A model generated the notes under the pieces. The model saw only the letters and a list, made by a program, of their open reading frames with translations, was not told where the DNA came from and did no database searches. Below are positions 3,197 to 6,454 of a stretch of 31,643 nt of DNA, one piece after another. The translations under genes and the position numbers were made by a program. The stretch is from the IMG/VR virus record IMGVR_UViG_3300032050_000526, positions 1 through 31,643 of that record, one strand, 5' to 3'. The DNA is from a virus (Duplodnaviria > Caudoviricetes). Within the stretch, counting starts at the first letter, position 1, and each line of letters opens with the position of its first letter.

Positions 3197-3411
3197 TGCT
3201 CGATCGCCTCTGCGTAGACGACGCGGGCCACCCGGCGGCGCTGGTCGCGCGCCAGCAGCCGCTCGGCCACGTCGAGCGCTGCATCGGCCAGTGCCGCGCG
3301 GGTCTTGACGTGTGCCGTGCGGCGATGGCCAGCCGGTGTCAGGTAGACCAGCCGACAGTTGAAGTCGCGGGTCGGAATGGCGCGCAGCCAGTCAGTTCCG
3401 GGGGCGGTCAC
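3193..3411 (-). CDS. Hypothetical protein
   Basis: 72-aa ORF with start/stop overlaps on both sides. Confidence 0.65.
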   Translation of the reverse strand: MTAPGTDWLRAIPTRDFNCRLVYLTPAGHRRTAHVKTRAALADAALDVAERLLARDQRRRVARVVYAEAIEQ

Positions 3412-4675: not shown

Positions 4676-4694
4676 GTCGTTTGCTCCTATGGTG

Positions 4695-4763
4695 TGGCCT
4701 GCCTCATCAGCGCGCCTAGGCCAGCGGGCGCGGACAGGCGGCGCTAGGGCCGCCTGTTTCGGC
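4695..4763 (-). ncRNA. Type II hammerhead ribozyme with loop I / 3'-tail pseudoknot
   Basis: Minus strand reads GCC-GAAA-CAGGCGGC-ccuagc-GCCGCCUG-UC^-CGCGCC-cgcUGGCCUa-GGCGCG-CUGAUGA-GGC-AGGCCA. All core nucleotides and three perfect stems are present, plus a 6-bp pseudoknot. It is intergenic and in the sense of the operon. Confidence 0.92.
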
Positions 4764-4766
4764 TTG

Positions 4767-4985
4767 TCAGTGTTTCTTAAGCTGACCCCGCCAGTAGTCG
4801 CGCTCTCCGCGCATGAAATCGCGCATGGTGCCGCTAAAGCCGCGCATGGTGCGCTCGATCGCGTCAATATGCGCGGTGATGAACGCGCGGTCGATCGTGT
4901 CGCCCGCTGCAACGCAGTGGCGCTTAAAGTCGCGGCCCTCGATGATGCCATCGAGATACGCTTGCGAGACAGTCTGTGTAACCAT
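4767..4985 (-). CDS. Hypothetical protein
   Basis: 72 aa with a GGAGCAACACGACATG start. Confidence 0.75.
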   Translation of the reverse strand: MVTQTVSQAYLDGIIEGRDFKRHCVAAGDTIDRAFITAHIDAIERTMRGFSGTMRDFMRGERDYWRGQLKKH

Positions 4986-5097: not shown

Positions 5098-5119
5098 GTC
5101 AGTTGCTCCATGTTGTTGC

Positions 5120-5143
5120 GCCGGGCGGTTGTCGCCGCCCGGC
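5120..5143. other. GC-rich intergenic hairpin without U-tract
   Basis: GCCGGGCGG-ttgtcg-CCGCCCGGC after the first early gene. Confidence 0.6.
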
Positions 5144-5153
5144 GGGTTGATGG

Positions 5154-5504: not shown

Positions 5505-5533
5505 CTTGTCGCATAGATTGAGGGTAGGGTCAA
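5505..5533 (-). promoter_or_regulatory. Putative sigma70-type early promoter
   Basis: TTGACC-17 nt-GACAAG with a TG extension, about 30 nt upstream of the first early ATG. The -10 box is weak. Confidence 0.45.
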
Positions 5534-5556: not shown

Positions 5557-5877
5557 TTGCCCACAATCGCCCACGGACTGCCCACAATCGCCCACGGAAT
5601 GCCCACAACCGAGGCGCTGCTAACAGCGCTCTATTATAGGGGTGTGGCGAATAGCGCGGGTTGTGGGTATTTTGGGTGGTGTGTGGGCGGTGCATTTTTG
5701 GGGGTATTGCCCACGGCTAAAGGCGCGGCAATCCTGAGGGCGTAGGGCTTGTGGGTCATGTGGGTCATCAGTTGTAAGGTTGGAAAAATTATAAATGCTA
5801 GTTAAGAATGATTCGCAATAAGGATAGAAATGGCCGCGATTAAAAACTGTATGCCCACATTGCCCACATGACCCACG
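5557..5877. repeat. (G/A)CCCAC repeat arrays around an AT-rich core; candidate replication origin
   Basis: Forward copies at 5559, 5569, 5580, 5590, 5601, 5709, 5853, 5862, 5871. Inverted copies at 5663, 5683, 5751, 5760. Two more copies at 6272 and 6281. Confidence 0.7.
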
Positions 5878-6454
5878 CCCCCAGCCCGCGGCGCCTCTAG
5901 CCCGCCGCGCTTCAAAGTTTGTGACATCAAAGTTTGTGGCAGTGCTGCAACAGATAGTGTTGCAAAAATGTATACGCCTAAATTGCCCGGAAAGGCCCCT
6001 TAGAGCGCGGCCGCGCATTTTGGCTACTCGGCTACCCTCAAACTAATCTTCCCGATTTGTTTACGGTTTGTTCTAAACAACAAAATAACAAAAAGTGTGA
6101 CGGCTTTGAGGGTAAGTTTCGCCGGGTCTGCGATGTGAAACACAATCTGTTTCATGGCTGTCTGATAGTTGCGCGATCGGCTGACCGCCCTCGTCGATGT
6201 TCTCATTTGTCTACCTGCCAGCTAGACAATGTGTGCTCGTGCATCGCCAGCCAGCAATGGTCCCGCGCATTGCCCACATTGCCCACAGCCAAAAGGGCCA
6301 CGCGCTTTGCTGCATTGCAGCATAAAACCGGATTGCCGGTTGGCTGGAGGGGGAGGGGGTGGGGCCGAGCGCCGTGTGATTGTCACGGGCACGGTCCGCA
6401 GACAAAAATTAATTTTTTTCTTTTTATTTTTTAAAAACTGCGGTATGGTTAGCT

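Follow-up and report, generated by a model that had tools for sequence, protein, structure and literature searches.

A type II hammerhead ribozyme in a probable phage early operon, at a gene junction where relatives carry another hairpin or no device

The 31,643-nt stretch of viral DNA analysed here (the window) contains a real type II hammerhead ribozyme between two small genes, and its sequence suggests that it is probably active. It likely cuts a predicted early polycistronic mRNA a single time, after the third gene and without a host enzyme, leaving two separately protected messages that likely differ in stability. The class, its pseudoknot, its phage setting and the idea of a processing role are already found in Perreault et al. 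(2011), and the window copy is an ordinary member of that family. What we add is that the same ribozyme stands beside different flanking genes, that relatives carry a different structure, hairpin X, at such junctions, and that the device is optional.

Results

On the minus strand, the hammerhead parts and coordinates assigned by the first-pass annotation agree base for base with the sequence (Table 1), and so do the two spacings it had given, 3 nt after the upstream stop and 7 nt before the ribosome-binding site (RBS). The core consensus, CUGANGA, GAAA and an NUH triplet with A15.1-U16.1, is present as CUGAUGA, GAAA and GUC. Stems I (6 bp) and III (8 bp) are closed by loops and stem II (3 bp) is open, which is the type II layout. 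The earlier call of a type II ribozyme with a pseudoknot also held: loop I pairs with the 3' tail over 6 bp (at least 4 bp being counted as a pseudoknot), and the Rfam search that had been suggested as a check returned RF02276 at 4764-4693 with 38.9 bits, above the gathering score of 37, over model positions 1-66 of 66. This was the sole match at the gathering score in the 31.6-kb window. A type II descriptor likewise matched once in the window and in none of 200 dinucleotide shuffles. Nothing else in the window was credible as a further ribozyme or as another Rfam RNA, whether by Rfam, the descriptor or a hammerhead model. Another minus-strand CUGAUGA, at 5771-5765, was rejected as a candidate, having no match by Rfam, the descriptor or model R1.

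Table 1. Positions of the ribozyme, its parts and neighbouring features in the window, and of hairpin X copies in relatives.
Feature	Position	Strand	Basis or remark
Type II hammerhead ribozyme with loop I/3'-tail pseudoknot	4695..4763	minus	Rfam RF02276, descriptor, covariation
Stem II 5' strand GCC (open stem, partner 4703-4701)	4761..4763	minus	sequence
Core GAAA (G12-A15.1)	4757..4760	minus	sequence
Stem III hairpin, 8 bp, 6-nt loop	4735..4756	minus	sequence and folding
Stem III strands CAGGCGGC / GCCGCCUG	4756-4749 / 4742-4735	minus	sequence
GUC triplet; predicted cut C4733/C4732	4733..4735	minus	sequence; position from hammerhead consensus
Stem I hairpin, 6 bp, CGCGCC 4732-4727 / GGCGCG 4716-4711, 10-nt loop	4711..4732	minus	sequence
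Loop I pseudoknot strand UGGCCU	4723-4718	minus	sequence
Core CUGAUGA	4704..4710	minus	sequence
Stem II 3' strand GGC (4703-4701) and pseudoknot tail AGGCCA (4700-4695)	4695..4703	minus	sequence
Upstream gene, 72 aa	4767..4985	minus	stop TGA 4769-4767, ends 6 nt before GAAA
Downstream gene, 112 aa	4337..4675	minus	ATG 4675; start 57 nt past predicted cut
Shine-Dalgarno GGAG of the 112-aa gene	4684..4687	minus	within leader GGAGCAA(A/C)
Predicted early promoter TTGACC-N17-GACAAG	5505..5533	minus	likeness to family motif TTGAC(A/T)-N17/18-NATAAG
10-bp GC hairpin in the operon's first intergenic gap	5119..5144	minus	counterparts of other sequence in L001 and L005
Hairpin X copies	L041:4669-4719; L059:6444-6497; L085:3547-3602; L096:6929-6985	plus; minus; minus; minus	early-operon junctions

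The virus record that makes up the window is linear and 85% complete; it has genes for a primase, an HNH endonuclease, a terminase and P22-like portal and coat proteins. Its DNA is present in lake and freshwater DNA runs as well as in runs labelled fungus metagenome, and no RNA run is among them. The ribozyme lies between phage genes of its own direction, among small minus-strand genes without known families that are transcribed away from the terminase genes. Judging by gene layout, this minus-strand run is a probable early operon of a podovirus with a P22-type portal, and to that degree the previously claimed place inside a phage early operon is supported. Within the 91-nt gap between the 72-aa and 112-aa genes, the 69-nt ribozyme is preceded by 3 nt and followed by 7 nt, GGAG and a spacer. 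The 72-aa upstream gene belongs to no Pfam or PHROGs family. For the 112-aa protein there was no Pfam or PHROGs match, none of its 31 homologs has one in Pfam, and its Atlas matches do not exceed 0.82.

Three genes lie between the ribozyme and the promoter-like site at 5533-5505. A sigma-70 scan did not flag this site; visual inspection of 25 family loci showed the promoter motif ahead of the first gene in 10. According to the accessible text of PMC7703639, a -10 element lacking the final T is typical of alphaproteobacterial promoters, and the missing last T of the predicted promoter is thus a slight hint at an alphaproteobacterial host. The leader GGAGCAA(A/C) occurs eight times on the minus strand (5486, 5109, 4998, 4687, 4347, 3964, 3047 and 1690) and never on the plus strand of the window; such repeats may help the exchange of gene modules. 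Plain GC hairpins of 10-11 bp without a U-tail stand in another early gap, at 5119-5144 (minus) in the window, at about 2577-2604 in L001 and about 4378-4403 in L005, and in L057 and L070; some of them are similar to the upper stem of hairpin X. The mostly non-coding stretch 5560-6290, which separates the divergent gene blocks, holds (T/C)GTGGG(C/T) repeats, 10 on the minus and 4 on the plus strand, with similar ones in L001; these are possibly origin or packaging signals. At 1703-1734, between the convergent primase gene and early block, a 12-bp terminator-like hairpin has a T-run on the plus strand and a weak one on the minus strand.

Covariation in related phages, which had been proposed as a further check, was found in the form of compensatory changes, with the core intact in locus L004. 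The L004 variant has 10 substitutions and one inserted nucleotide. Eight substitutions are in loops and the other two make up one compensatory stem I pair (G-C to A-U), the insertion follows CUGAUGA, and core, stem III and pseudoknot are all unchanged. Two pattern scans that fixed the core, stem II and the pseudoknot and left stems I and III free yielded 11 and 13 viral loci. The descriptor found stems I and III in 21 of these 24, and the remaining three scored 71-76 bits with a model not trained on them. A pattern fixing only the core and stem III gave 37 loci, corresponding to 22 distinct contexts, 21 of which have a stem I of at least 4 bp and a stem II of at least 2 bp, stems for which the pattern did not select. 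A pseudoknot of at least 4 bp occurs in 12 of the 22 contexts against 5 of 22 control tails, so that this contact is common, not universal. In a genome scan the same pattern found two loci, neither with family genes. Finally, we examined a 57-row alignment, which was fitted to the model and is hence biased towards the structure: 13 of 14 stem pairs show two-sided change with 98.7% of cells paired, and 5 of 6 pseudoknot pairs do so, in 12 cells, 24 of the loci having been selected for an exact pseudoknot.

The placement between genes is shared as well. An upstream stop lies within 20 nt in 48 of the 57 related hammerheads (46 of 326 controls), and a start led by a Shine-Dalgarno (SD) sequence lies within 45 nt downstream in 44 (73 of 326 controls). 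Both occur together in 36/57 compared with 10/326, indicating that the stop-ribozyme-RBS layout is the norm of the subfamily across unrelated phages. The stop ends 2-9 nt before GAAA in 39 of the 48 hammerheads with a nearby stop, and among all 57 the leaders after the cut cluster at 51-61 nt.

Four runs list no substitution within 4695-4763, one short indel-bearing piece in X13 being probably foreign. Run X8 shows no listed change in the ribozyme among 12 differences over 341 nt, a weak result (about 0.07). Unusual conservation relative to L001 was considered and rejected: the 79-nt identity is not exceptional, and a 92-nt identical run occurs elsewhere. Runs X2 and X13 contain a short contig piece like part of the ribozyme (4687-4733), with substitutions, three 1-nt gaps and unrelated flanks, which probably comes from another organism. 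GenBank phages gave merely six partial matches to the ribozyme (E 0.3-0.9). The phages OR003940 and MW202483, at about 80% capsid identity, had no Rfam match and none to the hammerhead or hairpin X model; with the closest cultured-looking GenBank relative (80% capsid identity) thus free of Rfam matches, the scope for direct in vivo work is limited.

Nested folding does not by itself return the hammerhead. The minimum-energy fold is a different one (z -0.54; ViennaRNA, in which the pseudoknot is not scorable), and with the pseudoknot left out ViennaRNA gives -29.9 kcal/mol for the hammerhead and -32.4 kcal/mol for the best fold. As a stand-alone duplex the pseudoknot amounts to -9.1 kcal/mol. 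For the 3' product of the window, nested folding with the pseudoknot unscored predicts an alternative hairpin that hides the SD sequence and a stem I probability of 0.01; folding of L001 and L004 did not find this alternative. Furthermore, cutting did not open the SD sequence in the folding calculations (4.1 to 4.3, 4.7 to 4.8 and 4.8 to 4.9 kcal/mol). A conserved translational switch is therefore not supported, as the SD sequence is not opened on cleavage and the fold that hides it is not conserved.

The ribozyme is independent of its neighbouring genes. In L001 and L002 an identical ribozyme precedes the 112-aa gene, and the gene upstream is another one, of about 200 aa; the similarity of L001 to the window begins at 4770, the edge of the element. 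This upstream gene (L001 3321-3914) is an early gene common in the family, and its product may be clamp-like, resembling a sliding-clamp domain. In L157 the ribozyme differs solely at N7, a free core position, with the roughly 200-aa gene upstream and another gene downstream; L004 has genes other than the window's on both sides. The assembly of run X3 contains a 79-nt node, 4692-4770, without differences and with two upstream and three downstream branches, and run X17 adds further flanks around the ribozyme. A homolog of the 112-aa gene is present in 10 loci. Immediately upstream of it lies a hammerhead in the five with 71% identity or more, which represent three lineages, and none in the five with 60% identity or less. 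A fixed link between the ribozyme and this neighbour was accordingly rejected. The hammerheads of L036/L037 and L038 have changed stems, and the downstream proteins of L036 and L038 are 71-77% identical to that of the window.

The survey of relatives covered 80 viral loci, the best among 594 that code for a relative of the small terminase subunit. In this set the hammerhead model matched 4 of 80 loci, all of them genomes already found, and a sequence profile built from 21 copies located hairpin X, an uncatalogued structure, in 30 of 80. Hairpin X was absent from the hammerhead carriers searched (the window, G001, G003, L036, L038, L046, L048, L050 and L068). It has a lower stem, an internal loop and a GC-rich upper stem in all 21 aligned copies and ends a few bases before the RBS. 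It starts at the upstream stop codon in 18 of the 21 copies and 6 nt past the stop in three. The stop codon is inside the lower stem, and the conserved 3' end UGGCGCUAGUGCC is able to form a small hairpin of its own. Rfam returned no match at E 0.1 on L041, a carrier of hairpin X. L065 and L066 have two copies.

Hammerhead and hairpin X follow or precede homologous genes. The roughly 200-aa gene is followed by a hammerhead in L048, L036 and L038 and by hairpin X in nine loci, including L059 (90% identity). A 46% homolog of the window's 72-aa upstream gene in L085 is followed by hairpin X, and in L078 hairpin X precedes the 112-aa gene. The gene after the L068 hammerhead has hairpin X in front of it in L096 (73%), L059, L061 and L062. 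The early side is covered by 5 kb or more in 37 of the 80 surveyed loci. A hammerhead is present in 3 of the 37, hairpin X in 20 and neither in 14, Rfam being blank on the 12 tested of these 14; the junction device is therefore optional. In a tree of the terminase small subunit, which left out duplicates and L038 (a locus without the gene), the four hammerhead carriers fall in one supported 15-row group, mixed with hairpin X carriers; they formed one clade in 0% of 200 bootstrap trees, the protein being short and the tree weak.

Five early-region intergenic stretches of T7 (NC_001604) fold to a shape similar to hairpin X, and some hairpin X copies share GGCCTTTATG with two such stretches. The T7 gaps hold RNase III sites, which are unmarked in the NC_001604 annotation. 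Like a processing site of that enzyme, hairpin X spans about two helical turns with an internal loop and lies between genes. By eye, the GC-rich upper stems of hairpin X (7-11 bp) are disfavoured by the E. coli RNase III box rules, and given this poor fit the RNase III reading of hairpin X is one of resemblance, not membership. We found no paper on swaps between hammerheads and RNase III sites in a literature search that was thin on subscription journals, and the accessible main text of PMC3088659 does not mention 'RNase'. At L091 7788 and L107 5395, both on the minus strand, a stand-alone intergenic hairpin has at most three mismatches to the window's stem III and no hammerhead core; it may be a remnant or else the source of stem III.

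Discussion

Hammerhead cleavage leaves a 2',3'-cyclic phosphate on the upstream product and a 5'-OH on the downstream product (accessible text of PMC6765202). The course of events that we propose would set out from an intact ribozyme anatomy, visible on the same strand as the two neighbouring genes, after the stop codon of one and before the RBS of the other. Transcription would begin at the promoter near 5533-5505, and pseudoknot-assisted cleavage is predicted at C4733/C4732. By the type II layout, the upstream piece would end in the stem III hairpin and a cyclic phosphate, and the downstream piece would start with its 5'-OH in stem I, followed by the pseudoknot and the 57-nt leader; after the cut the two would be joined by the 3-bp stem II only. 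The downstream block would thereby be stabilised and uncoupled from the upstream genes, much as by the RiboJ insulator, and the hammerhead would be one of several interchangeable, optional junction devices of this phage family. Both new ends would be expected to resist exonucleases and decay that depends on a 5'-monophosphate.

Other readings were weighed as well. It might cut with the result that downstream expression falls, the 5'-OH end being degraded or poorly translated and the first three genes dominating. Cleavage followed by degradation is described for glmS (accessible text of PMC6765202), and the window's 3' product is able to fold over its SD sequence. We nevertheless consider this outcome unlikely: the product begins base-paired, the SD-hiding fold is absent from L001 and L004, expression in E. 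coli was higher with a hairpin at the 5' end left by ribozyme cleavage (PMC6206723), and hairpin X, which takes the hammerhead's place, is similar to T7 sites, where a single cut yields 3' ends protected by hairpins (PMC1540722, accessible text). It is rather improbable, too, that cutting is minor and that the element owes its spread chiefly to service as a conserved anchor for recombination, by which phages swap early-gene modules, and as a hairpin that protects 3' ends. The start of the L001 similarity at the element's edge (4770), the collapse of the assembly graph on the ribozyme, the failure of hammerhead carriers to form a clade (0% of 200 bootstrap trees, again from a short protein and a weak tree), the stem III-like hairpin with no core in L091 and L107 and the many relatives without the device all agree with such an anchor. 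Anchoring, however, has no need of a catalytic core, and core and pseudoknot persist despite covariation in the stems and a downstream protein that has diverged to 71-77% identity (L036, L038), the one change in L157 being confined to the free position N7. The anchoring and cleavage roles are compatible.

Cleavage could also be conditional and report on upstream translation, either through a terminating ribosome that covers the 5' strand of stem II or through competition between the core and the SD-hiding fold. The stop that precedes GAAA by 2-9 nt in 39/48 cases fits this idea, as does the existence of the alternative fold in the window, but tight packing is usual in phage operons (2-3 nt gaps or overlaps elsewhere in the window), the fold is not conserved and the SD sequence was not opened by cleavage in folding, which makes this mechanism quite improbable. 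More improbable still is a window copy that misfolds or is a recently inactivated relic. Its RF02276 score is just 1.9 bits over the cut-off, its nested minimum-energy fold is not the hammerhead, and 4 of 18 consensus hammerheads were inactive (PMC3088659, accessible text); yet core and pairing are perfect, no substitution is listed within 4695-4763 in four runs, and other phage lineages carry identical copies. Very doubtful, finally, is a combined proposal in which the hammerhead is an allele of a swappable junction slot and a crossover point for early-gene shuffling, and hairpin X a new class of self-cleaving RNA rather than an RNase III substrate.

Cleavage of the early mRNA, on which the reading we prefer depends, had been likened in the first-pass annotation to RNase III processing of T7 early RNA. 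The T7-site-shaped hairpin X at the same junctions in relatives gives this analogy comparative support; the many relatives without any device weigh against the preferred reading. T7 early mRNA is alike in being cut between early genes in a way that leaves a protective 3' hairpin (R1.1 being the model substrate; PMC1540722, accessible text). The hairpin X of relatives is similar to the T7 sites in its stem/internal loop/stem shape and in position, and the window has no hairpin X. RNase III products carry 5'-phosphate ends, whereas hammerhead chemistry is protein-free and produces 5'-OH and cyclic-phosphate ends. The family provides naturally occurring alleles of a single junction, which may hold a hammerhead, hairpin X, a plain hairpin or no device, beside proteins up to 90% identical. 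This allows a direct test of whether a ribozyme and an RNase III-type site are equivalent in function. We regard the junction swap as comparative support for a processing role and a convenient test set, not as a new system.

RiboJ is likewise a self-cleaving element upstream of an RBS; whatever sequence precedes it, the 5' end after its cut is fixed and carries a hairpin. It raised the mRNA level about twofold and the protein level two- to tenfold (PMC6206723). RiboJ is an engineered construct, a ribozyme from a plant satellite RNA to which a hairpin was added, in contrast to the window's natural ribozyme, whose own stems would serve as caps. The purpose of bacterial and phage self-cleaving ribozymes was still undefined according to the accessible text of a 2019 review (PMC6765202).

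Type II hammerheads, their pseudoknot, prophage contexts with changing neighbours and a proposal of mRNA processing were reported by Perreault et al. 2011 (PMC3088659), and Dataset S1 of that paper may already list members of the window ribozyme's subfamily. In its accessible text, activity was seen in 14 of the 18 consensus hammerheads tested and disappeared on mutation of the pseudoknot, three tandem prophage arrangements cleaved in vitro, with cleavage in E. coli too, and the 5' end of a halovirus early transcript maps near the hammerhead site. With the catalogued RF02276 members the window copy shares the core, the circular permutation, the short open stem II, the pseudoknot and a bacterial or phage setting, with no structural difference; unlike them it is unannotated and known from sequence alone. 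The operon hammerheads of prophages and phages described there (the Agrobacterium ardA block, Clostridium scindens, Azorhizobium, and HHphage of haloviruses HF1/HF2) are, like that of the window, intergenic, co-directional and upstream of a start codon, and their neighbours are not constant. They lie in polycistronic phage transcripts, from which they were proposed to produce shorter mRNAs. The window differs in a downstream gene without a known family and a leader of 57 nt. Those hammerheads are often in tandem around single genes or blocks, although this is not required; the window has one copy and L038, a family member, has two. The L038 copies, at 1944-2020 and 3210-3286, are near-identical and 1,266 nt apart, and only the second tail gives full loop I pairing. 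Two unrelated phages have more, with five type II hammerheads in L031 (4999-7600) and three in L025 (4999-7043).
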